A stretch of 64,000 nucleotides of DNA, from assembly GCA_008632985.1 (NCBI GenBank), contig QPGO01000005.1, forward strand, positions 310,001-374,000, in the 5' to 3' direction. The translations under genes and the position numbers were made by a program. This DNA is from Psammoneis japonica (lineage: Eukaryota). The notes under the pieces were generated by a model. That model was not told where the DNA came from, searched no databases, and worked only from the letters and a program-made list of their open reading frames with translations. Position 1 is the stretch's first letter; each line of letters opens with the position of its first letter. Positions 10,656 to 61,627 of this stretch are shown here, one piece after another.

Positions 10656-13074
10656 ATGAGTCCTCATTTGTTGGCGGTAGCTTTCATCGTGTTTTCATCG
10701 CGGGAGCGTGAGGTGGTCTCCGCCTTTTCTACTAGAAGCGATGCAGCTCGTCGGAGAACCTTTTCGACAACCCCTTCACTTGAAATGGTATCAACTAGCA
10801 GTAGTTCTAGTCGAGGAGTGAGCACTCCCCCAAGCAAGTACCCGACAGAACGAGGCACAGAAGTAAACAGCCGAAACATTGTATCAGCCAGTGGAGGAGA
10901 TCATTTGACAGCGATTCGTTTGTCGCATATTTTATTTGCATCCGAGGAATTGGCAATTAATACGTTGGCAGACCTCAAAAAGGCCACTCTTGCGTTTGAC
11001 GAAGTGGCGGGACAAATAAGCAATTGTGCGGCAACAAGAGAGCACGGTGGTTCTGTGGGATGGGTATCGGCAGATGATAAGTATGGTGAATCTCCAGACG
11101 TCAATGAACATCTTGACCAGATTCTTCCACGAGATGCGAGGACAAAAATATTAAACATGTCAACAAAGGTCTGTGCAGTTCATAAACGTTGATTCATGCC
11201 TCGAGGTTACAGTACGGTACACTAAAGGAGGGACTGTTGCCGTGAATCACTCACCGAGCGCGTTTTCGATTTGTTCTTTTTTCTATCAAACCTGAAGCCG
11301 GGCGATATCATTATGGTACCATCTTCACGAGGTCACCACTTGGTGCAGATTGTTGATGTAATGGTTGATGTTTCCAAGATGGCGTTCCAAAAGCCTCGAA
11401 ACAGGAGAAAAACTGCTCCGGGCGAAGTTATTCCTGGAATCATGGGTGGAGCACTCACTTTGGATGGTACAGCGGATTTGACGTACAAGCTGGAAACAAT
11501 GGGCTGTCAAATGAATGCTGCAGACTCAGAGAGAATGGAGGGGCAGTTACAAGATCTTGGTATAAGACCGCTGCTACCGGAGGAAGAAAAGGCAATGGCA
11601 AAGCCTGATGTAGTTGTCTTCAATACATGTTCGATCCGAGACCACGCAGAGCAGAAGGTTTATTCGTGAGTGACTCGTCCAAGAGAGGAGGCTAGTTGTG
11701 CTGTATAGGTGATGTCCTACATCTAACTTTTTCTCTTAATTTTGTAAAGATACATTGGTCCATATGCAAAGAGAAAAAGGGAAGGGGAAGATGTTACCAT
11801 TGTTGTTGCTGGCTGTGTAGCACAGCAAGAAGGTGAGGCTTTGTTACGAAGATCTCCAGAGATCGATCTCGTTATGGGTCCACAATATGCCAATCGGATC
11901 GGAGACTTGCTTGAGGACGTGTCGAATGGTAACCAAGTTGTCGCGACAGAAGCCACCCATATTATGGAAGACTCGACCAAGCCCAGACGTAGCTCGACGA
12001 CGGCTGCGTGGGTGAATGTCATTTACGGATGTAACGAGAGGTGTCGATTCTGTATTGTACCTACAACACGTGGAGTTGAACAGAGTCGACCTGCCGAGAG
12101 CATTGTGCGCGAAGTAGAGGAGTTAGTGAGTCAAGGATACAAGGAGGTGACTCTTTTGGGTCAGAACATTGAGTACGTCTCGTGACCCTCAGCAAACTTT
12201 CGCTTTTTGAGTGTCGATTCTAGCACAAGGCTTACTTTTTTCTTTTATTTCTTCTAACCGTTGTAGTGCGTACGGGAGAGACATGATCCCGAAACGAAAG
12301 TTCTCGGACCTCTTGAGAACCATTGGCTCCATTGCTGGTCTCAAGCGGCTTCGCTTCGTTACATCGCATCCTCGCTACATGAGCCTCGCCGTTGTGGACG
12401 CCGTTGCAGAAACCGAAAGTGCCTGTGAAAGCTTTCATATTCCTTTTCAGAGCGGTTCTAACGAAGTGCTGAATGCCATGGGACGTGGTCATACGAGAGA
12501 GAAGTATCTTACGATTGTAGATCGAATTCGCTCGGTAAGGATTGTGTTGCATTATGTTTGGGATCATCAACGTAACTTGTACTCTCATGGGTATAAACTA
12601 CACTTGTGCTTCATTATGACCTTGGTGCAGAGATTGCCTGACGCCTCCATAACAGCCGATGTGATCGTGGGATTTCCGGGCGAAACGGAGGAGCAGTTTG
12701 AGGAGACGCTGAGTTTAATGAGAGAGGTTGTCTTTGATTCTGTAAACACGGCTGCCTATTCTCCTCGACCAAACACACCAGCTGCGACCTGGGACAATCA
12801 AGTACCTGAGAAAGTCAAGCGTGAGCGTTTAGCCAGAATCAATGCGTTAAATTTGGAACATGCGGCCCAACGACGAGCTCGAATGAAAGACCGTGTAGTC
12901 GAGGTCCTCATTGAAGAAAGAAACGTGCAAGTTCCAACTCAAGTGATGGGACGAACAACCCATGGGTACATTGTCTACTGCGAAGGAGACATTGACGAAC
13001 TTCGAGGACAGCTGGTCAACGTCAAGATCGACGACTGCCAGACCTATTACCTCGCCGGGAGCATCGTGCAATGA
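10656..13074 (+). CDS. miaB: MiaB-type tRNA methylthiotransferase with an N-terminal parvulin-like PPIase domain; about 5 exons, probably plastid-targeted
   Basis: [28 protein letters not shown], radical-[33 protein letters not shown] and a C-terminal TRAM domain. Upstream are RLSHIL...[13 protein letters not shown]...SSRGHHLV (parvulin) and a VSA-FST targeting motif. Confidence 0.92.
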
Positions 13075-39299: not shown

Positions 39300-40720
39300 G
39301 TGCCATCACTCCTTTGCCGGCTGTGCCGGTGCTGGCTGACCCACATCCCCAGCACACAGCTGAGTGCGGCAGGAGCTTGCACGGGATTGGCTGGAATGGG
39401 CATCACCAGAAGGTGACACCCCACCAAGACAACTAAAAAGGAATGACTCACATGAGGGATTCATTGCATGCTTGTTGATGACAGCCACAGAAGGAACACG
39501 CCACAGCTGCAGCAGCGGACAATTGCGCTCGGCAGACAGGTTTTTAAAATGGTCCACAAAAGGAGCCTTGAAGGCAAGACAAGCAGGTCATCAGAGAAAA
39601 TGTTCATGGCACACAGAAACAACACTGGGTCTTGTACAGAAAAGCCAACGGGAGCAGCAAACCGAAGACAATCAAGTGGCGCCACAGGATGACTCGCGCG
39701 CTCTTGCTGAAAAGGGCCGCAACAGAAGCAGCACAATCACCACAAAGAGCGAAGCACTTGATTGCATGGCAGAGAAAAGAAATGGGGTTGAAGACCAGAT
39801 GGCAAGGACAAAAGCAGTCTGGAGAAGTAACACGTAGATGGTCAGTGGCAACGCGCAGAAACAACGCCAGATCTTGCGCAGAAAAACAGGCGGGAGTGGC
39901 AAATGGAAAACAATCAAATGACTCCAAATGACAACTGACATTCTTGCTGAAAAGAGCTGCAATGGAAGCAGCACTTGCACCACAAAGAGTGAAGGACTTG
40001 ATTGCATGGCAAGGAAAGGAAGTGGCGCTGAAGACCGACTGGCAAGGACAAAAGCAGGCCGGAGAAGTGACGCAGCAGCACCCGCGGATCCACACAGAAT
40101 TTGTGCTAGAACCTGTGCAGAAAATTTTCTGAGACAAAAGAAAATTACAAGAAATGACAACTGGCACATGATGAGCCAACAGGCAGCGACACTCGTCATT
40201 TTCCACTGATGAACTTTGCCCATCATGCCGCACAACAAGAGTGCGCGCCATTGGCAAACGTGGACAGAACGGGCTTGTTGGCTGGAGCCAAATCAACACC
40301 ATCTGAGAATGGTGACATCAGCACAAGAGCACATGCATGAACACATGCAGGAGGTTGCCAGTGGGTGCATGCACAGAAGAGTGCATTCAAAGAACTCTGG
40401 AGCGCACTTTTGCAGAACAACATTGTGTCTTTCTCAAGGAGGAGCAGGTTTGAGTGCACTGTGCCAGCCCTTCCAGTTTTAGTGTGGAGCAGTGTCCACA
40501 TCAATGACAACACCACCTCCATCACTGTGAAACAAACCATTTGTCCCACTCGCAGTGCTTGCAGTGGACACAGCCAAGCGCGCCGTGCTTTTTCCTCGTG
40601 GATTGCGAGTTTTGAAGTCAGAGGGCCGCCTCTGTCTGTGGTGTCATGAATGTCTAGAGTGACAGCAAACACGGAAAAATCCATGTTGAAATGAAAATGA
40701 CTGCGCAATCAACCTGGGCT
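39300..40720. mobile_element. Degenerate repeat/TE relic, TpA-depleted island
   Basis: About 9 TA dinucleotides in ~1.4 kb by manual count, TG/CA-rich, no credible ORF, contains an internal ~241-bp duplication. TE family not identified. Confidence 0.55.
39608..40080. repeat. Diverged ~241-bp tandem duplication
   Basis: CAGAAACAAC at 39614/39856, GCTGAAAAG at 39706/39946, GGCAAGGACAAAAGCAG at 39801/40041. Confidence 0.9.
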
Positions 40721-40966: not shown

Positions 40967-42580
40967 ATGACGACTCCAACACGCCATCAAGCCACACTTG
41001 TTGCTTGTGTCATTCTCCTGGCTATTCCTGCTACTGCCGAACCTATAGTATGCCCAGTGGTTGCAAGCACAGACAATAGCACCACGTTGAACCACATTGA
41101 CTCCGTCAAACGGTACAACGAGCTCTCAGGATTGGCCATCTCGCCCACACAAACCGGACCGAGCGGGCAACCCATTCTTTATGGAGCCAACGATGGCGGC
41201 GGAGGAGAACGAATGGGCGTATGGGATACGGGTACAGGAGAACGAATCATGTCACTGCGAATCCCCAACAACCGCTTGAAAAACACGGACTGGGAAGACA
41301 TGACAATCGGTTCCTGCGGTTCGACTGGCGTGGATGATGTGTGCATCTACATTGCGGACGTGGGCGACAATGTCGCTATTTCATCGTCGGGTAGACGTTC
41401 TCGCCGTAGTGAAGCTGTGCCTTACCAAATTTTGAAGATTCGAGAACCCAACCTGGAAGATTATAGGGACAATGATGTGCTACCTGATTCTTCAGTAAGC
41501 ATCTTACCATTTAACTATTTGCATCCGTCTTCACCGACTGCTGCCGCAGACTGTGAATCCATGTTTATTGATCCTACTGGTTGGGGGGAAGGAGGTGCAA
41601 TTGGGGACTTGTACCTTATTACCAAGTGGTATTGGGATGATAAAGGCAACTGTCGCCTTTTCAAAATTCCAGCCTCGGTATGGCCTGATGATGGAGGGAA
41701 CGGTACCATGTACTCTCCCGAGGCTGTGGGGACCTATGTTGCTGGTGGTGCCCTGGACGCTAGTTGGTATTGGACTCGAGCTGAATCGTCTCGGGACGGG
41801 ACTATCATTCAAGTGGGAGAAGACGTGGAAAACTTTCTGTTTTTACGTTGTCCCGGCGCTACCGTGGCGGAGGTACTGGCCAATCCAGACACGTCTGTGC
41901 AGAATTGTCTTCGATGGTTCGATCCAACACCGGGTCAATCAGAAACCTTTGCATGGATGCCGGATGGAATGAGCAATTTGCAAATTCCGGAATGGAGCCA
42001 CAACATGGGTTGGACAACCATGTCCTATGATGTAACCAAGACAACACAAACATGTCCAGAGGTTGGTTATGTGCAAGGTCAATGCGTGGCGCTTGAAACA
42101 AACGATCCACTTCCGGACGCGTGGTGCCAAGCGGCAAATCCCGATACGAGCACACCGACACTCGCTCCGGTAGACCAGTCAACCGTCGCTCCAACATCAC
42201 GTCCCAGTCCAGGACCAACTCTTTCTTCGGTACATTCAACATTGTCGCCATCGGTTTCACCACCAACTCTTTCTCCGGTGCATTCGACTTTGTCGCCTTC
42301 AGTTTCACCAACTCTTTCTCCCGTGCATTCGACTTTGTCGCCTTCGTTTTCACCTCCAACTCTTTCTCCCGTGGATTGGACTTTGTCACCTTCTATTTCA
42401 CCGCCGCCTCTTTCTGCCGGGGATTTGACAGTGACACCTTCGGTTTCGCCGTCCACAATTGTCTTTTCCAATACATCACCATTGAATGGTGATGATTCTT
42501 CCGATGCCGACAGCATTTTGCGAAATGTTAATCTACCCATTGCTGTCATTGCATGGACACTTTTCTATCTGTGCTTATGA
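40967..42580 (+). CDS. Secreted, probably GPI/membrane-anchored surface protein with a bacterial-type beta-propeller-like domain and Ser/Pro/Thr stalk
   Basis: Signal peptide; ELSGLAIS, NDGG, DWEDMT, IYIADVGDN, DCESMF and LYLITK motifs; TLSPVHSTLSPSVSP repeats (~42215-42400); hydrophobic C-terminus; intronless. Confidence 0.8.
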   Translation: MTTPTRHQATLVACVILLAIPATAEPIVCPVVASTDNSTTLNHIDSVKRYNELSGLAISPTQTGPSGQPILYGANDGGGGERMGVWDTGTGERIMSLRIPNNRLKNTDWEDMTIGSCGSTGVDDVCIYIADVGDNVAISSSGRRSRRSEAVPYQILKIREPNLEDYRDNDVLPDSSVSILPFNYLHPSSPTAAADCESMFIDPTGWGEGGAIGDLYLITKWYWDDKGNCRLFKIPASVWPDDGGNGTMYSPEAVGTYVAGGALDASWYWTRAESSRDGTIIQVGEDVENFLFLRCPGATVAEVLANPDTSVQNCLRWFDPTPGQSETFAWMPDGMSNLQIPEWSHNMGWTTMSYDVTKTTQTCPEVGYVQGQCVALETNDPLPDAWCQAANPDTSTPTLAPVDQSTVAPTSRPSPGPTLSSVHSTLSPSVSPPTLSPVHSTLSPSVSPTLSPVHSTLSPSFSPPTLSPVDWTLSPSISPPPLSAGDLTVTPSVSPSTIVFSNTSPLNGDDSSDADSILRNVNLPIAVIAWTLFYLCL

Positions 42581-42797: not shown

Positions 42798-44688
42798 TTA
42801 CCAACCTGCCATCATCTCACGTTCGATTTCTCTTTCTATTTCCCTTTCTATCTCGCGTTCAATCTCTCTTTCGATTTCTCGTTCTATCTCGCGCTCAATC
42901 TCCTTTTCAATTTCTCTTTCGATCTCACGCTCAATCTCCTTTTCGATTTCTCTCTCCACCTCACGCTCAATCTCCTTCTCGATTTCTCTCTCCACCTCAC
43001 GCTCTACTTCGCGTTCTATTTCTTTTTCGATCTCCCTTTCCACCTCGCGTTCAATCTCCCTTTCCACCTCGGCTTCAATTTCTCGTTCGATCAAATCTTC
43101 GTACAGGGCCTGTTCGTACATTCCAGTGTAATATCCCATATCATAGCCCAAGCTATACTCTAAACCCGAACACACCGGACCAAAGAGTAGTTCGTCAATG
43201 ACCCATCCGGCCAAGATTGCCAAGAAAACCGCCCCTGCCATGTCACCTGCGCTCATTTGTTGTCGATACTGAACTTTCTCGCCGCTCTTGGATGCGGTAG
43301 GCTTGAAAGTGTAGGGCAAATCAAGGACGCTGCCGGAATGACAACTGTCAATGAGACATGTCACCTTTACGCCTTTTTTCATCGGTTGAACAAAATGATT
43401 AAAGAGGTTGAAGTCACGAATGTGTCCTGCCTTGGGATGATCCAACGGAATCAGCGTTTGATCGTATTCATCGTTCTTTTGTTTGAGCGAGTTCTGATCG
43501 GCTTCTAGGAATCCACCGTGTCCACTGTAATGGAAAAAGACAGAATCACCCTCATTGCTGATCTGAGTCAATGTCTTCAGCTTGGCTATCATTTTTGCCT
43601 TGGTGGGTTGTTCTCCGTCTCCATCATCAGTCAGTAGGGTGATATTTTCTTCCGGGAAGCCGTGTATATTTTTCAGATAATCCTTCATGTGGTAGACATC
43701 ATTGTGACAGCCCCGAAGTTGCCCGTTTTGACCCACGTAATTGATTCCGACCAGTAGAGCCCGTCGTTTGCCACTGGTATTTCCGTCCTCGTCTGTTCCA
43801 CCATGAAGCGTAAAGGGAGTTTCGTCCAAATCAAGTGGTCGACTGCTGGAAAGCTGAGGGACTTGAGAGTGTCCCTGTTCCTTGAGTTTGTCTCGGAGCG
43901 CCATGAGTGCATCCTGAAAGGAAAACTTTTCATCCTGGTACTTGTATAATAGTTCCAACAGGGCCGACGTGCAGCCCCTCCTGCACGTCCCTGGGGTCGG
44001 GCAAACCACTATTGTTGGCGGCGTTCATAACATCGGCGCTGGTTTGCTCGTCTTCGCATCCACTAATCATTCTTACTTCTGCGGGAATGAGTTTCTCGGC
44101 TTGCTGTAAGAATTGTTCTGGATCTTGAGGAGCATCAGCCGCGGCTTCCTCAGGATCAACGGTTGCCTTTTTACGATGGTATTCGGACATGTCACGGCTA
44201 ATGACATTGGTGAGCGGAGGCGGAGGGATTTTGGATTCCGCCTCGGCAATCTTCTCTTGTTTTAAGGCGGCTTGCTTCTTTTGAATGTCTGGTGACACCT
44301 TCTTAGCCGCAACTTGTTTTTGGATACGTGCCTCTTTGTCGGCTTGGGCCTCTCGGCTGTTCTTTTTGGCACTGACCCGTTTCTGGAGTTGGGCGTCCTT
44401 TGCAGCTTGGGTACGCTTGCTGACGACAGCAGCGTCGCCAGTTTTCTTCTTTCCGGTCTTCTTTTTGGCCTCTACTTGCTTCCGTATCCGAGCTCTCCTG
44501 GGATCTTCGGGTTGTTTAGGCTTTGGCTTTGGTTGCTGAGGCTTTGGCCTAGGCTGCTGCTGTTGTTGTTGGTACCGAGGGTTGGGGCTTTGCTGTTGTT
44601 GATAACGAGTCCCTCCGCCAGCCGTAGGACGAGGTTGTTGTTGTGGAGGGCGACCTTCGTTCACTGGGACGGATTGGTCGCAACCCAT
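42798..44688 (-). CDS. Type III metacaspase (p10 before p20) with MGC N-terminus and (I/V)E(R/K)E-repeat tail
   Basis: p10: VRMISGCEDEQTSADV...CTSALL...QVPQLSSSRPLD. p20: RALLVGINY, LRGCHNDV, FHYSGHG, DSCHSG. Two apparent 1-nt deletions at C/G runs near 43975-44000 break the expected PDPxGRAGGAC. Confidence 0.9.
42816..43091 (-). repeat. Coding 12-bp tandem repeat, about 23 x (I/V)E(R/K)E
   Basis: Translation IEREIEAEVEREIEREVEREIEKE...IEREMMAGW; synonymous codons vary between units. Confidence 0.95.
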
Positions 44689-51579: not shown

Positions 51580-53479
51580 AGATAGAGAAGACACAGCGAG
51601 AGTGACGACACTCCTCCGGCCGATTTCAAGACTGGCGGCATGGACCATCAGAGCTGCCATGGATGATGTGGGATCAACCTTTGGCCGTTGTTACAGGAAG
51701 ACAAGGGCCCAAGGTTGGACCCGACGGAGCAGCGACACAGCAGGGGCGGGGTGGGGGGGGGTGAAGTGCACAAGATGATTGTTCCCTGCAAGCTGGCGAC
51801 TGTGATGACACAAGGACCAGCAAGAAGAAGAGACATGGAAAAAGGTGCCTGACTGTCATCCACAAACAGTCTGGCTGGCCATGTGCACCAGCCGCACTGG
51901 TCAAAAAACTGATGACACCGTCCCCTGACCCCCCCTCCTGCCTGGCACGTCTGGGCCAGAGACAGTGCAGGTCACAGACAGGCTGACAGGGAAGGCATGA
52001 ATGTCAGCAATCAACCAGTGAGATGCATTGCAAACCAGATGACCCAAGAGCAAGTGGACAAAACAAAAACACAAGGGGCTGTTTGGGTGGCAGATGCCAA
52101 ACAGATGGGAGACAACAACGTGCCTCAACAGAGGTGTCCCGCAAGGGGGGCACTCTGATTGGAGACATGTCTGTGCCAAATGTCTGTGCCACCAGTGGGG
52201 CGCAAGGCACAATGATGGCGCACAATGCATTTTCAGGTGCTGAGGCTGTGGAACTTCAACAAAAAATCAACTGGACAGGCTTTCTTGTGACCGCCGCTGA
52301 CAGAATGCAAAACCTGTTTGTTGAGGAGGGGGTGGCACACAGGAGCAAACAGCAACATGCTCAGACTGCAACATGCCCTTTCTTTGTTTCTGCAAGGGGG
52401 CACATGCAGGCAGCCACCCACATCCACAGGTTGTTGTGCTGCTGGTGTGCCAAGTGCCAGACAGACTTTGAGTGAACATGGATTGTCAGGACAAGTGGGC
52501 TGTGCAAAAGAAGTGGATCCTTGTCACCCATGCAAGTGACATGTGCACCAGCACCCAGCTGTGCACATGGTTTGTCAGGCTCAAATTGCACTGCGTTGAC
52601 CTTGAAAAACTTTTCTGTCGGTGTCATGGGTGATGGATGGTGAGACCCATGATGGCGCACTTGGTGAGATGATCTGATCTGAGTTTGAGGCAGCAAAGCC
52701 ACACGCGCATGTTTCACATGTCCAGAACAAAGCAGATGTGGTCAACTCCAATTGCAATGACCACTTTTGCACATGACAAGCTTGGAGAGCAAGCTCCATT
52801 TTGCAACCCAACATTTGACAAGAGAATGACCTGAATCATCATCAGAGCTCCACAGAGCTCTCACCTTCAGAGAGCAGCTTTCTTGACAAGTGATGCAACT
52901 GGTGTGGAACAAGGGGTCTGCTGATGTTGCCAGCAGGATGAGTTCATTGATGATGTGCCTGTGAATCAGTGTGCCATGAATGTCATCCTTGGTTTGGATG
53001 TGTTTCAGATCATCAAAGAACTGACCCAGATCTGGGGTGCATCACCACACTTGTCATTCAGGCAACCTGTGGCCTGTTGCTGGTTTGCACATTGTTGAAA
53101 AGTGAGCTGTGTGTTGGCAAGAGTGTCAACAGCACCCTTTGTGGTGTCTTGAGATTCACCATGATGGAGGTGCCCTCATCATGCATGGAAGTGTGAGCAC
53201 TTCCAGGATCAAAAAGCTGTTTTGTGCTCATTTGGCTCACAAACCACCAAACAAAACAAGATGGGGTTGTGTCAAAAAAAAAAGAACATGTGACAAGACA
53301 AGGCTGCAAAATGATGGAGCAGAAACACATTGAGAGGTGACATGCACAACAGACTTCCCTGCAAACTGGTGGCTGTGACAACATGAGCACTGGTGAGAAA
53401 GAGTGAGAAGGAGATCTCAGAGAGATCTGCCTCATCTGCTGTCCAAAATGCTGCCTGACCATCATCTGCAAACAGCCTG

Positions 53480-54110
53480 GCCATGTGCAATGGTGCTGGC
53501 CAACTGACAGGACCAGGGCAGGTGTGCTGCCTGGTGCATTTTGCTCTGCCAATGTTGAGGATGCAAGAGCCAATGTGGATGACAGAAGCACAACAGAAAG
53601 TGTTGTGGTCTCACTCCTCCATGCTCCATCCTGAAACCAAGCAACCTGTGAAGATGTTGCAGCAAGCTGATTGACTGTTGGAGTGTGGTGGCTTGCCATG
53701 CTGTCAATGTGCACCCTCCAAAACCTGCAGTTCTTCTGCAGAAATTCTGAGTTGGCTCACACTGATCAAGACCTTGCGCTGGCAAACACAACTTAAATCA
53801 CCATTGGGCACCCAAAAGAATGATGAGATGAGCTGCAATGCGGTGATGACATGCTGGGACAGGAACAACTTGCTGTGCCCAATGCAAGCCTGGGATGCAG
53901 CAGTCTTCCACATCTCCTCAACAACCTCCCTGACTCCAGTCAATGTTTCAGCATGGATGGTCAAGCACCTGCACTTCTTTGCTCCTGTTCCAGACTTCTT
54001 CAATCCTGAAAAACCAGGAGTGCACAATTGTCATGAGCTCCAAGCCATCACAATTGCCGTGAACTGCAAGCCATTGCTCATGCAAACAATGGCCCATGCT
54101 GAGCACAGTT
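53480..54110 (+). pseudogene. Possible tyrosine-recombinase remnant of a DIRS/Ngaro-like retroelement
   Basis: Across frames: GAF..A(M)LR..E, HTDQDLALA...ITI, QKNDE...V....LLCPMQAWDAAV..I.S....TPV. This recalls the QK.DE...LCPV.AW pattern of such recombinases. From memory only. Confidence 0.4.
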
Positions 54111-55507
54111 GATGGTGCAACAACTGCTGCGCAGCTCACTCTCTTTGCTTGAGCGGCAGTGCAGAGATGAGAGTGGCTGATCAGAGATCAAAATTTTGCA
54201 AGTGAGTCATGATGGTCATGTCAACTGCAGAGCCATTCTTGGGTCACTGGGGAAATGTTCAGGGCTAGAATCTGTGACCTGAGGGGGGGGGGGCTTGGTT
54301 TGATGGGTCATTGTTTGTTGGTCCTGTGAGCCAGAGCAATTTGCACAAATCATGTGCAAGTTGGGACAGCAGGAGGCATGGACAAGTGGATGAGTGCATC
54401 TTGTCATTTGGCTGCTTGTGCACACCTGACATTCAGCAGACTCAATTTCCTGCACAAAGGTCACCTGTCATTCTCTGTTGACAATGCTGGATTTTGTTGA
54501 TGATGATGCATGAATCTGTGTCATGTGCTGCAGTGCTGTTGAGTTGCTGCTGGGGAATGGGAGTCTTGTGCCATGATGCAGAAAAGCATGCAGAAAAAGT
54601 TGTGCTCCACAAAATTCTTGGGGGGGAGAAAGCTGACTCAGATTTTTTGCCTTGTTTCATGTGACATTTGCATCCCAGTGACCATGTCAGTTGGAGGCCA
54701 GTGGTGGCTTAAGGTGCTTGGTCCTGTGAATGAGCTCAACACTTTGCTCTCTTCAGCAATGCTCAAGGGAGAGGCACTTGGGGATGATGATGCAGCACAC
54801 CTGCAAAAAAACAGTGACAAGGGTGTCACGGTCACGGCGCAGTTTTTGACATCACACATTCACTGCACCTGCCACAGAGCTTGTTGACAGAGCTCTTCCA
54901 TTGGTGTGTGATGAGAAGCTTGTGTCTGCAGGCATTGATGGTGCCTTGGTTGATGCATGAGAAGCTTGTGTCATCTGCAGGTGTTGTTCCAGTCTGTGCA
55001 TTGACAGGTTCCATCATTGACAACAAAAGTGTGGCCCAAGAGGCTCCTCAAGACAGAAGTGTCCAAAACACCAACTGGTGAACAGAGGAGTTTTCTGCAA
55101 AGCACAAGACAGCACATGATCTAGGATGCCAGCACTCTGGGTCTGACTGCCTGTCATGATCTGGGACTTTCCTCACTGTGATCACAAAAATGGTGTTGCT
55201 CAACAAGCCAGGCATTTTTTTTTTGTTTTAGCTCAAAACTGGCTGAGTTTGCAGGGCTCTGTCAGAAGCAAAACCACACTCCACTTTTGTCAAAGGGCAA
55301 TCTTGTGTCCAGCCCCACAGTCAATTTGGTTCTTTGAGTTTGTTTTGTTGTTTCTCTTGCTGCCGTCTCTCTTCATTCAATGCAGTCACTGCCCCTGATT
55401 TGTCTCATTGCATGTTTCTTTAAAAATTTGTGCTCCATGCCACCACCTTCATGTTTTTTACCTTGCCACAGATTTTAACTGCCGCTGAAGTTGTGGCTTG
55501 CACACTG

Positions 55508-55931
55508 GCTTGGTTGATTGCTGCTGCTGCATGCTTGTTCTGCACTGGCATTTTTTGTGCTTTCAAAGGCAGGTCATCCCTCCCATTGGTGTGTCACACC
55601 ACTCCTCTCTCTCCTCCCTCTTTCATTTCTTTTCTGCTTCCCTGGACAAGCTTGGCGTTGATTGCCATTGCTGCTGCTTGTTCTGCACTGGCATTTTGTG
55701 CATTCAAAGGCAAGTCATCTCTCTCCCGTTGGTGTGTCCCACCACTCCTCTCTCTCCTCCCTCTTAAATTTCTTTTCTGCTTCCCTGGACAAGCTTGGTT
55801 GATTGCTGTTGCTGCTGCTTGTTCTGCACTGGCATTTTGTGCATTCAAAGGCAGGTCATCTCTCCTGTTGGTGCATCCCACCACTCCTCTCTCTCCCCCT
55901 CTTTCATTTCTTTTCTGCTTCCCTGGACAAG
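55508..55931. repeat. Three tandem copies of a ~142-bp unit
   Basis: Units start at 55508, 55650 and 55793; each ends CTTCCCTGGACAA. Confidence 0.95.
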
Positions 55932-57569
55932 TTTGCTTTTTCTCACCTCTGTTCACTCCTGGAACCCAGACTGCAACCTGGGTTGTCAGCTCTGTCCTGC
56001 TTTGCCCACCACACATGCACAGCTCATTGCATTTCTGTGGGTGATCCTTCCATGCTCCATCCCTGACTCTGCTTTGCCAACTCACCCCTTCCTTGGGTCA
56101 TGCACTTCACATCCTTTACATTGTCCGCTGTCAGTTTCCTCCTCCTTGCAGTGTCATCTTTTTGTCCTTCTCCAATTTTTAAGTTGTGATGGAAGCCTTG
56201 TTGCAGAAGTTCAAGCACACGAACATGGCAAATGCATGGATGAAACAGCAAGTCATTCTTCTGGTGATTCAGCGGTGCTTCTGCCAAAATGTGTCTGGCC
56301 CACCACTGTCGGCACAATGTTTTCCACAGGAACCATGCACACATGTCCCTGTCTGCTTGGCTTTTCTTCAAGTCCTTGCACTCTGCCAGCAAACCTTCCA
56401 AAGTGAAAACTGCACGTGCACAAAAAATGATGCACCAGGCTCACCTGTTTGAAAAGACACACAACTCTGACTCTTTGTCAGGTGCATCATTGTGGCTCAC
56501 CTGTTGTTCATCTCCTGGTGTTGTCTTGCACATTGTTCCTCTTTCTGTTGAGCACATTCCAAAAGACCTCTTTGCATGCATTCCAGAATGCTTTTTTTAA
56601 CCTTGCCATGCTTCTCTTGAACTCCTGCAATGCCATTTTTGTACAATCACCTCCCAGCACTGCCAGCTCTTTTTCAAACGACAACAATGAATTTGTGGTG
56701 CAGCCACAAAAGTTCATTGACAACCTTGGTCAACATTGATCCAACTGTTCTCTTGCTCATGACTGGAGTGTGATCCATCACCTGATGTCCCATCGGAGTT
56801 GCCACAGAACTGGAGCTGCCCCATTCCAGCTAGAATCAATGCAATTCTTTCATTTGCAGGTTCATGAGCCCTGCTGTTGCAGGGCTCATGGTCACCGCAA
56901 TTCATCCCAAAATTGCCAACAAACTTGTTGGCAGTCTCTCTGATCATCTGTCCTCTTGCAACTCCTGCTCTGCCCAACTCACTGCCAGGAGCCACCCTGC
57001 CACCATCTGGTTCTGTCTGCCCTGTCACAACTGAGCCTTCCATCTGCATGCACTCTTTTCTGCATCTCAAGACTGTGGCATTTGTTGTCATCACCCATTG
57101 TTTGTGCCACCAGAAGTGGCAAAGTGAGCGCACTTTTTCAGAGTTGGCTTCTGTGTTTTGTCATTGGAGGCATCTCCTGATTCACTGCCTTTGCACCAAC
57201 TTTCTTGGCTCATCTCTTTGATGATGGTGGAACATGTCCAATCTTCTCACCATTTGAAAAGTCTCTTAACAAGTGCAACCACCACATTCAGGCAAACGCC
57301 TGACTCCGATTGTGGCAAGGTGATGTGGCAAAGTGCAACTGAGCTCTGTGCAATCCAAGAGCAGACATGATTCTTGGCCATTTGGCAACATGGATGAAGC
57401 ACAACAATGTGGAATTTGAGCATGCTCTGTTTGATGTTTTGGGCAGAACAAGAGCCAGATTGATGTCATCATGATGAAGGCCAGAGATGCAGCAACCCTT
57501 GGTGCAAGAGTTTTGCTGCAAGTGGAAGGTGTGCCAAAACAACACTTTTCTAGATGGGTGTTGCATTGG

Positions 57570-57680
57570 GGAGCATTTGTTCAAGCACTGGGTGGCAATG
57601 GCCAACCCTGTTGTTGGAATGGACCACAACAAAAACACACAACATTTCATTGGCAAAGGTGCATGATCATGTGCTGGCCT
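57570..57680 (+). pseudogene. Possible Myb/SANT-like (Harbinger ORF1-type) remnant
   Basis: W.....NPVVGMD(Q/H).K..TF.W..VHDH pattern across frameshifts resembles LCxAW...DPIVGxDQ...FW. Confidence 0.25.
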
Positions 57681-58089
57681 TCTCCCACAGCTCACAGTTT
57701 GGTCTGGTGCAAATGTTGCACAAGCTGCTCACAACAAGTTCACAAGAGCTTGAATCTGGCAAGGTGCTGCTGTGTTTGATTGTGTTCTCCTGCAGCTCTT
57801 AGTTTGGTCTGCTGCAAATGTTGTGCAAGCCATTCACAACAAGCTCCTGAGAGCTCAAATCCTGCAAGGTGTCATTGAATCCTTTGCCAAGCTCTGTTGG
57901 TCAGGGTTCACAGGGACATCTGACAACTTGGCACTTTGACCCTCTCCAAATTCTGCCACAGCCCATCATGGACTTCAACGTTGCTTGACAACAAAGTTCC
58001 AACTCAGATTGGCCAGTGGATGACACATGAGGAGGTGTTGGAGCCTGCCAGTTCCATGGTGGGTTGGGATCACAGGTTGCACCACTTCA

Positions 58090-58410
58090 TCTGCCAGAAA
58101 CAAACAGCAACACTTTGCAAGAAAGAGTGGCACTTGCATCAATCTGCTTTGACTGCTGAAAGCAAATGGCGCTGCTTCACATGAAAGAGATTGTGTTTGT
58201 GGAGATTGTGATGCTTTGTCTGCTGGAAGCAAACAGCGCCACTTTGCAAGCAAGAAAGAGCCTCCTTGTTTTGGCAAAAGTGCCTCACATGGCATCTCAC
58301 TCCTTTGTCTGTCAAAAGCAAACAACAGTGCTTCAAAACAAAAAGGGCAGGTTGCGGCATTTGCAGAGATGTTGATGCTTCTTTTGCTGGAAGCAAACAG
58401 TGCTGCAGAG
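58090..58410. repeat. About 5 degenerate copies of a CTGCTGGAAGCAAACAGC-like motif at 65-90 bp spacing
   Basis: Copies near 58091, 58153, 58220, 58309 and 58385. Confidence 0.6.
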
Positions 58411-59097
58411 CAACAAGCACAACAAATCCCACTGCAGCCATTTTGCCATTTCCAAATGTGCACTCAGCAGGGTGTGCCTTTTGATGGTTTTTTGTCATGC
58501 AGTTGATGCAGCCCTCAAACATCTCAAGCTGCACTGCAGCAATTCTTTTTTCAGAGAGTTCTGGGGTGATGAATGAAGTGCCTTCTCACTCATGGCCTTC
58601 ATTTGATCATGATTCTTGCTGAGTGTCAGTGTCGCCTCATCTGAGATGGCTGCCTCTTCCTGCAGCTTTTCATTCATGCCAATTGCTTCCAGGCCACTTG
58701 TCAATGTGGTCCACAATGTGTTGGATTGTCATCTTCTGCAGCAGAGAAGGGAACCCTTCCAACACTTTCCAGGTCCAAGTTGTTGTCTGAGCCACTGGGG
58801 CTGCTCTTCAGTTGCTCTCTGCTGTTGTCATTGTCGTCATGCCCAAAATTGTCAAAGTCAGACAGAGCTGCCCCCTCCTCTGTTGTTCAAATCATCCTTC
58901 TCCTGAGCTTTGTGGGCATCTGTCACCACCACAACTTCTTGGTTTGATGGGTCATGGCAGTCTGGCTGAGCATGATGCACTGCACTGTGACTTGACACCA
59001 TGACACAACAATGTGACAGACAGTGGTGGCAGAGGAGCTGCGACATTGACCATGCATCACATGACACTGCAAAATGGTCTACAAAGCCACAAAAATC

Positions 59098-59200
59098 TCA
59101 AACAAGGAGCTTTGCCTTGGCCCTGGAGAGTTCACCTGCTGACAGGGTTCCATTGTCATGCAAAGCCTTGAGCTTGGCAAGCTTTTCTGTGACATCATCA
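59098..59200 (-). pseudogene. SHOCT-like C-terminal domain remnant
   Basis: DDVTEKLAKLKALHDNGTLSAGELSRAKAKLLV* fits LxxLKxLxDxGxL(S/T)xxE(F/Y)xxAKxKLL. Confidence 0.55.
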
Positions 59201-60404
59201 ACATTGTTTTGTGAACCAGCTGCCACGGCAGAGTTGCAAGCTGCATTTTCCATGGTGAAGAGGGCCTCAAACCTTGAGAAATGCCCTTCGTGATGGTGTT
59301 CTCCAAGCTGCTGACATTGCCCACCCACCAGGCATTGCCACTGTGTGCTCCCAATGCCTGTCCATTCCTGCAGTTTGTGCACAGTTTGTGTGTTTGATGG
59401 AGAGAGCTGCCCGCATCAGTGCATTTGTGCATCACGCAAAAGCAGCTGCAAACAAAAAAAACACTTGCACACAATCTCAAAGGTTCCTGTTGTGAGATCC
59501 ATCAGCTGAATTCCTCCCCTGCCATCAAAGGTCAACAAGTGCTTGTGCTGTTGGCATGGCCCCAGCACCAACATCATGGCCATGCCTTTGCCCAGATTTT
59601 TCTTGCACTCAATTTGCACCTTTGTGGACATTTCTTTCTGAATGTTCCACTCCTTGGCCAACTCCTGCTTCACTGGATTGACAAACAAGGTGGGGTGCCA
59701 AAAGACCAAGAATTTCATGTCTGACTTAACTGCCTTGACTTTGGTGATGCAATCACAGTTTGGGGTGTTGGCGGTGCTTCCATTGATGCTGATGATGTGA
59801 TCATCATGTTCTGGCTTGCTGACTCACCCATGCCGGAGAGTTTGCTTGTGCAAATCACCCACCATTTTTCTTCATGGAGACACCAATCCTGGCTGCTTTT
59901 TGATGGTTGCAGCAAGGGCGGGCATGGCGTCATTGCAACAGGAGTGGCAAAAGGACAATGAATGTGGAGAAAAGTGATGTGTGGCAAGAACAACAGGAGT
60001 CATTGTAAAACATGGCGATGGGTGATGGCACCACACTTGCACATCTTTTTGAGAAGTTTCAACTCATTGTTTTGGCAGAAATGACTGTGACTGACTGCAG
60101 CCAGGCCCAAGGTCACTGCTGGTGACATGGAAGTGACTTCAACTGGGCAGTGTCTCATGCACACCACCTGATTTTCTTGTGTTTTTGTGTGTGCAGTGTT
60201 GAGAAATGCATCGGCTGTTGAAGAGCTGCTGCAATGGCTTTGTCTCATTGCCTTGGTCTCTCCTTGCAACTTTGCTGTCTTCCAAGTCTTTGTCTTCTTG
60301 TGTGATGTTGGAGCCAGCCCCGCAAGGATGCCAAGAGCTGGAGCTCTGCAAGTTGGGCTGTGGAGCATCAACTGGAAGCTGGTCAGCATGGTCACACACA
60401 ACAA

Positions 60405-60428
60405 GAGAGAGAGAGAGAGAGAGAGAGA
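60405..60428. repeat. (GA)12 microsatellite
   Basis: Seen directly. Confidence 0.95.
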
Positions 60429-60609
60429 TTTTTGGCAACATGAGCACACAACAGCCAGAGAACAGGGCATCATGATGAGTGTGTCCTGGAAGGTTGCAGC
60501 AGCTGTGAAGCAAAATTTGAGCACTCCAATCTTTAGAAAATGAAGCTGACCTGGCTGCTTGATGGCAGGGCAATGCAAACCAAGAGCTGTCTGAGTTTAA
60601 CAGCACTCA

Positions 60610-60760
60610 TGGTGCCTTTGTCTGCCAAGGATCAATTTTGCAAAGCTGCCAAAAAGCCAGAGTTTGACACAGGTGAGGAGCTGTTTGACAATTTTGAGCA
60701 AGTGTTGGCTGGCACAGTGGAAGACAAATGGGGGAGATTGGCTGATGAAGCTCTGCATGG
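60610..60760 (+). pseudogene. Possible LTR-retrotransposon gag-like remnant
   Basis: FCKAAKKPEFDTGEELFDNFEQVLAGTVEDKW reads as real coding sequence and recalls diatom retroelement gag-like ORFs. From memory only. Confidence 0.3.
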
Positions 60761-61299
60761 TGCATGGTGAAAAACTGTCTCAAGCACCTTCTTGGCAAGG
60801 GGAGTGAGTCACTTTGGTTTGCAGCACAGTGGTTGAACACATCTGCCAACCCTGAAAAACTGTTCAAATCTGAAGTGCGGGCTCAAAGGGAGGTGTTGGT
60901 GCCCTGCTGCTGCTCTTGCAAGCTCACAGCAGGAGCTGCTCCACACAGGTTGTGAGGAGCCCCCAGAACAAAAAGATGGTGTCAAAATCATGACTGCTTC
61001 ATTTCACCCAAACAAGCTCTCAGAGCTTGCACAATGCTGCAAAGCCAGCATTGATGACAAGACACACTGCGCCAACGACTGCTCGACCAGGAAATGGCCA
61101 CACCTTTGACTGTTGCTTTGGCTGTGTTCGTTGTTTTGGGGCTTTTCTTGATGGTGCTGTTGCCTTCGTGACTTTGACTGTTGCCACAGTCAACGCACGT
61201 CAAAAGTCTGTTTATTTGACTTTGGCTTTTCAGGCACTGAGACACCCTGAGCATGATGCATGGTCTGTCTGGGAGGTCTGCGGCAGGAACAGCGAAGAG

Positions 61300-61389
61300 G
61301 TGAAGTCGGACGGCGCACGCACGGCACCAAATGCGACAACATTGTCGGTCCTTCCGTCCATCCAAGTTTCAAAAAACTACACGAGAAAC
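61300..61389 (+). repeat. Right copy of the ~85-90-bp direct repeat bracketing the island
   Basis: Aligns to 51495-51579 with two small indels. Confidence 0.9.
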
Positions 61390-61627
61390 TGCGAGAAAAG
61401 CCGTTTTCTCTTTTATAAACCTGCTTACCGCTCTCCTCTCTAGAGAGTAGAAGTTTACAATTCATGTTAGAGAGGCAAGTGGGTGCTCTTTGTCGTTTTG
61501 CAAAAAGGTCCAGGAAGATTGAACGACAATAACAGACAACCAGTGGCATTTAACAACCTCTTGGTGATACCATAAAGAGAGATATGTTTAACATTGGGAT
61601 AGCACCCAGCCAAAAGGAGCATCGATA

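Follow-up and report, generated by a model that had tools for sequence, protein, structure and literature searches.

In fungi, repeat-induced point mutation (RIP) converts CpA to TpA, which raises TpA, and the process spills into adjacent sequence. Targeted hypermutation of DNA from A:T to G:C at TpA has been reported once before, in mutation-accumulation lines of the chlorarachniophyte Bigelowiella natans, where 231 of 302 new mutations fell within two integrated viral regions and 230 of these 231 were A>G or T>C, always within TpA (Mettrop et al., bioRxiv 10.64898/2026.01.13.699255). The main text of this preprint counts 124 clusters in the B. natans genome that have little TpA and abundant CpA and TpG; an ADAT2 homologue is proposed as the enzyme and the 5' U preference of ADAR is noted, with neither an identified enzyme nor a motif beyond the dinucleotide. 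The main text contains no mention of CpG, context, flanking, trinucleotide, tetranucleotide or TTAA, and its supplementary Table S2 may hold flank data. When we surveyed the literature on diatoms and other algae for hypermutation at TpA or for islands free of TpA and CpG, this preprint was the only report found. Here, we describe two islands depleted of TA and CG, a large one (island 1) and a smaller one (island 2), in a 64,000-nucleotide stretch of contig QPGO01000005.1 (positions 310,001 to 374,000 of the forward strand; hereafter the window, in whose numbering all coordinates are given). We consider it probable that these islands are non-coding, intergenic blocks that have undergone saturating, on-site transition mutagenesis directed at TpA and CpG, with a preference for certain flanking bases.

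Extent and composition of the islands

The islands and the core of the larger one are as follows, where Y is a pyrimidine, R is a purine and o/e is the observed/expected ratio.

51693..61377, no strand: island 1, TA-free zone, 23 TA per 9685 bases, o/e 0.04
52707..61069, no strand: CG-poor core inside the TA-free zone, 42 CG, o/e 0.09
39435..40654, no strand: island 2, 7 TA (o/e 0.10), 3 of them Y-TA-R; CG o/e 0.52; CA/TG o/e 1.64-1.81

The preliminary description of this DNA had placed the TA depletion at 53790..61220. The depletion holds over that range, but the true TA-free zone is wider, and the accompanying loss of CG had gone unmentioned. Outside the islands the TA o/e is 0.59, while 2102 bases from 51693 up to the first residual TA of island 1 at 53794 are without any TA. 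CA and TG are enriched alike in island 1 (o/e 1.85-1.86, compared with 1.12-1.14 outside), and 65 CG are left in it (o/e 0.12, compared with 0.99 outside). The loss of CG is nested within the loss of TA: the CG o/e is 0.25 in 51693-52706 and 0.82 in 61070-61377, both of these edges being without TA. GC content is 0.488 in island 1 and 0.477 outside, and AA/TT is not depleted (o/e 1.18 and 1.14, respectively), so the earlier remark that AA and TT runs remain abundant was correct. When we converted ~97% of the TA and 87% of the CG in silico in the window sequence outside the islands, the CA/TG o/e reached 1.83-1.84, compared with the 1.85 observed. An A->G excess shared equally by all A and T positions was not seen, AA/TT standing at 1.18 while 97% of TA is gone. 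These values, a TA o/e of 0.04 together with retained AA/TT and nearly equal GC content, support the earlier suggestion of an enzyme-like sequence preference rather than GC-biased drift.

The mechanism that we propose has two arms. In the first arm, TpA would be changed to TpG or CpA (A:T to G:C), and in the second, CpG would be changed to TpG or CpA (G:C to A:T). With both arms acting, every pyrimidine-purine step ends as CA or TG, and GC content stays nearly constant. The TpA arm would be the same kind of process as that in the B. natans mutation-accumulation lines, and it may be the work of an enzyme, for instance a TadA/ADAT2-like adenine deaminase acting on DNA. For the CpG arm, the cause may be that methylated C is deaminated in silenced chromatin; diatom transposable elements carry CG methylation, according to the part of PMC9998398 drawn on here, which gives an ordinary explanation for this arm.

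The CpG arm also has a flank preference. The residual CGs (n=68, 51722-61198) are skewed to GCGC (11), CCGC (9) and GCGG (8), with TCGA and TCGC present once each. Relative to the background share of each word, TCGA is the lowest (0.16x) and GCGC the highest (3.8x). Since the residual CGs are biased to GCGC, CCGC and GCGG, the CpG arm favours T or C on the 5' side and works most slowly where G precedes the step.

Flanks of the surviving TAs and change in place

The TAs that survive in island 1 carry the main evidence for a flank rule, and their positions are given below.

53794..60598, no strand: span of the 22 residual TAs, 17 of them Y-TA-R
Residual TAs 1-11: 53794, 54266, 54710, 55122, 55229, 55421, 55459, 55476, 55765, 56117, 56180
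Residual TAs 12-22: 56598, 56642, 56831, 57267, 57551, 57800, 59080, 59727, 60006, 60534, 60598

The 22 TAs in 51694-61212 comprise TTAA (10), CTAG (4), TTAG (3), TTAC (2), GTAC (1), CTAC (1) and GTAA (1), and the 23rd TA of the zone lies on its edge, at 61213, as TTAT. The preliminary description had counted about 17 of about 23 residual TAs as TTAA, CTAG or TTAG, and our count agrees closely: 17 of 22 are Y-TA-R, compared with 363 of the 2148 TAs outside the islands (17%; binomial p=8.3e-10 for the island excess). The excess persisted under an alternative null in which the residual TAs arose anew from CA/TG by C>T or G>A, where Y-CA-R makes up 477 of 2215 sites (p=3.9e-8). The count also bore out the earlier statement that no residual TA is preceded by A; in addition, T follows none of the 22, and the chance of finding neither ATAN nor NTAT among 22 is 4.2e-7. 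These results confirm that the surviving TAs are non-random, far beyond chance.

We then estimated how often TA survived in each flank class. Because the changes are transitions, which keep the purine/pyrimidine pattern, the ancestral number of pyrimidine-purine steps in each class is known exactly; the denominators are these step counts in the island multiplied by a host-like TA share, so that the percentages are approximate. Survival was 17 of ~62 for Y-TA-R (27%), 5 of ~218 for R-TA-R or Y-TA-Y (2.3%) and 1 of ~123 for R-TA-Y (0.8%). By word, 10 of ~16.5 TTAA, 4 of ~19 CTAG and 3 of ~26 TTAG plus CTAA survived. The preference of TA removal at the 5' flank is A > G >> C > T, and it is mirrored at the 3' flank. 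In terms of the proposed TpA arm, TpA would be lost fast with a 5' purine (A more than G) or, on the other strand, with a 3' pyrimidine (T more than C), and Y-TA-R would persist by offering no good site on either strand, in the order TTAA > CTAG > TTAG/CTAA.

Repeats in and around the islands record how the composition came about.

55508..55935, + strand: 143-nt tandem repeat, 3 copies, CA vs TG between copies at 3 homologous pyrimidine-purine steps
57680..57871, + strand: 105-nt tandem repeat, 1.8 copies, 14 of 18 differences are transitions, 5 steps CA vs TG
39614-39831 / 39856-40071: tandem duplication of 218 nt in island 2, 77.5% identity
51489..51590, + strand: left copy of a 107-nt direct repeat bracketing island 1, outside the TA-free zone, 4 TA kept
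61294..61400, + strand: right copy of the bracketing repeat, 77.6% identity, in the TA-free edge, CG kept

At 12 homologous pyrimidine-purine steps in the tandem copies of the islands, one copy has CA and the other TG, a difference for which two hits on a TA or CG ancestor are needed. One step of the 143-nt repeat reads CCAT, CCGT and CTGT across its three copies. The copies of the island-2 duplication differ at 47 of 216 positions, and 34 of these 47 differences are transitions. Based on the CA vs TG differences, the CCAT/CCGT/CTGT step and the transition-rich differences, the island composition arose on site, by transitions. In the bracketing repeat, the right copy has CA or TG at 3 of the 4 TA sites of the left copy. 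This repeat could be a long target duplication, or it could reflect spill-over of the TA process into host DNA.

Another explanation is that the block was depleted of TA and CG before its arrival, coming from a virus or element that avoids both, or that selection keeps it so, the Y-TA-R words then being those tolerated. The unedited R-Y steps of island 1 differ from those of the host (see below), which fits another source, and no ancestor is available for comparison. Nevertheless, the block offers selection neither an open frame nor a domain to act upon, and its tandem copies differ as CA vs TG and as CG vs TG/CA, which shows change after duplication in place. The host-like right bracketing copy with its lost TA sites, and the CG-type differences that set the window apart from the public-run contigs described below, likewise argue against arrival in this state, and we regard this explanation as improbable.

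Direction of the change and reality of the sequence

The preliminary description had read four differences between paralogous copies as RTA->RTG, equivalent to TAY->CAY. All four differences exist, but the copies are old and have no outgroup, and the RTA->RTG polarity is not established.

51519 GTAC / 61325 GCAC: bracketing repeat, R-TA-Y, uninformative
51526 ATAC / 61332 ATGC: bracketing repeat, R-TA-Y, uninformative
51549 CTAT / 61359 CCAT: bracketing repeat, informative
39828 GTAA / 40068 GTGA: island-2 duplication, informative

The opposite rule is TAY->TGY, equivalent to RTA->RCA. The surviving TAs cannot set the polarity, because R-T-A->R-T-G and T-A-Y->T-G-Y both spare exactly Y-TA-R, and the R-TA-Y paralogue sites are uninformative because both rules hit R-TA-Y. 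The bracketing copies differ at 19 of 102 positions, and neither they nor the island-2 copies have an outgroup. Under the same assumption of direction, a further site of the bracketing repeat (51568 CTGC / 61378 CTAC) points the opposite way.

The products of R-TA-R offer a second approach, since they should be R-TG-R under RTA->RTG and R-CA-R under TAY->TGY. R-CA-R and R-TG-R sites numbered 737-746 and 498-502 in the island, and 2136 and 1824 outside. The share of R-TA-R that ended as R-CA-R (pi) was estimated by maximum-likelihood fits with one to three flank bases, together with bootstrap and simulation. With a host-like baseline, pi was 0.94, 0.75 and 0.31 when the corresponding share for R-CG-R (the CpG share) was set to 0.5, 0.65 and 1.0, respectively, and zero, the value required by strict RTA->RTG, was rejected throughout. 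The direct cases for CpG polarity were 4 vs 3, a share of 4/7, which are too few to fix the CpG share.

As a control, we compared R[RY]Y steps, which lie beyond either process. At these steps AT made up 0.208 in the island and 0.302 outside, while GC made up 0.316 and 0.228, respectively (p=5e-12), and the shift separated all 4 quarters of the island from all 9 outside chunks of 5 kb. Purines before purines showed almost no shift in composition. The R[RY]Y shift makes the host-like composition baseline unreliable. The polarity R-TA-R->R-CA-R, which the fits to product composition had favoured, was therefore dropped after the control showed that the baseline was wrong. When corrected by flank step, pi was 0.75, 0.62, 0.46 and 0.18 at CpG shares of 0.5, 0.57, 0.65 and 0.8, respectively; since the corrected pi hinges on the assumed CpG share, the direction is not identifiable from these fits. 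The R[RY]Y shift itself has two possible sources, an ancestor of different composition or weak off-target A>G change at A before a pyrimidine, and the latter would favour the T-A-Y reading. On balance, we lean towards T-A-Y->T-G-Y as the change of base. We regard R-T-A->R-T-G as unlikely, and an absence of polarity as more unlikely still.

The changed base could also be T rather than A. In that case, an enzyme would modify the thymine in R-T-A, for instance an oxygenase of the TET/JBP type that oxidises it to hydroxymethyl- or formyl-uracil, and the product would pair with G at replication and lead to R-C-A. Product composition leans this way, with pi of 0.75-0.94 on the host-like baseline, and purines before a pyrimidine are enriched in G at sites that cannot be TA or CG, each of the 4 island quarters exceeding each of the 9 outside chunks. 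The composition baseline is unreliable, however, and the same polarity would follow if A were changed within T-A-Y on the opposite strand, a case that sequence alone cannot separate from this one. We consider a thymine-modifying process to have a low probability.

Two further processes might account for the A:T to G:C arm, namely error-prone repair synthesis of the polymerase eta type and ADAR-like editing of double-stranded RNA that is copied back into DNA. Each of them changes A to G, preferentially after T: polymerase eta has WA hotspots, where A in TA and in AA mutates to G, and ADAR prefers a 5' U and a 3' G. Polymerase eta should hit AA as well, yet AA/TT was kept in island 1 (1.18, compared with 1.14 outside) with 97% of TA gone. 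The 5' T preference of ADAR fits the island, but its 3' G preference does not, since CTAG (4) and TTAG (3) together make up 7 of the 22 survivors. Editing of an RNA copy also leaves unexplained the loss of TA in the host-like bracketing repeat and the on-site mutations of B. natans. Taken together, these observations leave either process with a very small probability.

We also need to consider whether the TA- and CG-poor sequence itself is real. Contigs of one public run (X1) were compared with the window; the platform of this run is not on record and it may be the sample behind the assembly, so it is not fully independent. In X1, 95% of the sampled words of island 1 are present, and the X1 contigs over the island have a word depth of 63-68, equal to that of the flanks. 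Pieces of 3894 and 4527 letters differ from the window at 1 and 6 letters, respectively, and the only breaks in the contigs within the island fall at its tandem repeats and at an (AG)12 run. Over ~9.5 kb, the window and the X1 contigs show 9 differences, none of them at a surviving TA. Four of the nine are CG vs TG/CA, with ~70 CG left, and one is CA vs TG at a single step; 3 of the 4 CG-type differences are TG/CA in the window and CG in X1. These differences may be alleles, strain differences or errors; should they be genuine, the CpG arm would be recent or still active. Since the X1 contigs reproduce the island at a depth like that of the flanks, the TA/CG-poor sequence is real and a base-calling artefact is unlikely. 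The specific form of artefact in which a long-read base caller took modified bases (5-methylcytosine, 5mC, at CG and an altered T or A at TA) for transitions is hardly credible, for although 3 of the 4 CG-type differences run as miscalls of methylated C would, X1 contigs at a word depth of ~65 repeat the TA/CG-free sequence, which is strong but not final evidence given that the platform is not on record.

The X1 contigs also showed further features of the island. Short pieces of it are shared with many other X1 contigs, the summed word depth reaching ~7800 at 53411 (53386-53451), 320 at 56505-56871 and 756 at 60699, and these pieces look like fragments of dispersed repeat families. Two contigs join 51681/51684 to 54294/54190, omitting ~2.5-2.6 kb that lie between poly-G tracts at 51749-51761 and 54281-54293. 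The sides of these joins are just 26-44 letters long and were placed at 80% likeness; the joins could represent a deletion allele or a mis-placed repeat.

Coding content, origin and host

Island 1 is non-coding at present. A Pfam scan of its six frames, with stops read as X, gave nothing above the cut-off, the best match being SHOCT with 18 bits against a cut-off of 27 bits. Stop density is 0.026-0.031, flat over the six frames. A coding score based on purines and pyrimidines only, which is valid here as transitions leave that pattern intact, did not separate the island from intergenic controls. Inside island 2, an open reading frame (ORF) of 232 amino acids lies at 39604-40302 (- strand); it has no Pfam match and is probably an artefact of missing TAA and TAG stops.

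The islands are probably decayed foreign or mobile DNA. When island 1 was compared with the rest of the window by blastn and tblastx, no match was found. A scan of one of its six frames against IMG/VR gave no match either, with peptides chosen to be rich in W, C, H and Q, which are products of the mutation itself. Neither Rfam nor tRNA scans of the window gave a match, and no RNA data set was listed as containing the island.

Several points weigh against the proposed two-arm mutagenesis of foreign DNA. First, no unmutated ancestor or paralogue was found, so that no single change is truly polarised. Second, Y-TA-R itself is ~3.6-fold depleted, which makes the flank rule a rate preference and not an absolute one. 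Third, the R-Y step control points to a possibly different starting composition of the island. Fourth, foreign origin is not established, there being no domain and no match in the rest of the window or in the IMG/VR scan of one frame. Finally, the CpG arm may be an ordinary process with no link to the TpA arm, because the B. natans lines showed no CpG hypermutation. With these points in mind, we put forward as a more tentative proposal that a diatom-like alga may possess a sequence-specific, DNA-editing genome defence, which would read R-T-A (T-A-Y), convert A:T to G:C and share its chromatin domain with CpG decay, stripping invading DNA of both self-complementary pyrimidine-purine steps.

The window belongs to the nuclear genome of a photosynthetic eukaryote, and its introns are few and short. 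Among the products of its long ORFs are a gamma-tubulin complex protein, a Mot1-type SNF2 ATPase, a DEAD-box helicase, a Mg-protoporphyrin methyltransferase, YL1 and a metacaspase. The gamma-tubulin complex ORF had 82 homologues, the best at 47% identity, and all better matches with a named organism were diatoms: a metagenome-derived Bacillariaceae genome (44%), Nitzschia (40%), Seminavis (37%), Amphora (37%) and Chaetoceros (40%). Because these named homologues are all diatoms, the host is a diatom or a close relative with little representation in the database, and not B. natans.

Two observations concern the genes around the islands. A MiaB-like radical-SAM gene (UPF0004, Radical_SAM and TRAM domains) at 11226-13071 (+ strand) is spread over three ORFs with gaps of ~80 and 30 bases, the pieces being apparently separated by short introns. 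Coding tandem repeats are found at 42214-42447, at the end of the ORF 40967-42580, and at 42813-43091, within the downstream portion of the metacaspase ORF 42801-44024 (- strand), with periods of 48/93 and 12/36, respectively. The repeat at 42214-42447 coincides with a low TA count, 8 TA being present in 42001-42500.

Comparison with known systems

The islands resemble the outcome of RIP in that both reflect local, saturating, dinucleotide-directed transition mutagenesis of unwanted DNA. In contrast to RIP, TpA falls (o/e 0.04) and CpA/TpG rise (1.86), and the read-word depth of the island equals that of its flanks, with no present duplication trigger evident. The CpG arm is like decay driven by 5mC, showing loss of CpG with a matching gain of TpG/CpA. 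It differs from plain 5mC decay in its strong CG word bias and in overlapping the TpA arm in space.

Deaminases of the TadA/ADAT2 type convert A to inosine, which is read as G, and their natural tRNA site is U33-A34-C35. A TadA-derived editor variant prefers Y-A-C, according to the part of PMC13109818 drawn on here. The likeness of the TpA arm to such enzymes would hinge on a pyrimidine 3' of the A, which is the same question as that of polarity in the island.

The closest described system is that of B. natans (10.64898/2026.01.13.699255). Island 1 easily passes the cluster thresholds given in the main text of that preprint (TA o/e 0.04, CA/TG 1.85), the change in both cases is from TpA to TpG/CpA, and most B. 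natans cluster genes are described there as unannotated, as is the case here. Three differences stand out. First, the host here is a diatom-like stramenopile and not a chlorarachniophyte, which makes it a second and distant host. Second, the process is saturated here, with 97% of TpA gone, an end state that the giant-virus insert of B. natans, still at 3.3% TpA in the account of the preprint, has not reached. Third, CpG has been erased too, and because this co-located arm leaves GC content unchanged, such islands are invisible to GC-based scans. The island also adds an order of 5' flanks, A > G >> C > T, with TTAA the most resistant word, which any candidate enzyme must reproduce. If the proposed defence is real, its occurrence in a stramenopile and a rhizarian would point to an old and widespread RIP-like system of the SAR (stramenopile, alveolate and rhizarian) group, and the three-base word would provide a direct biochemical handle for finding the enzyme.

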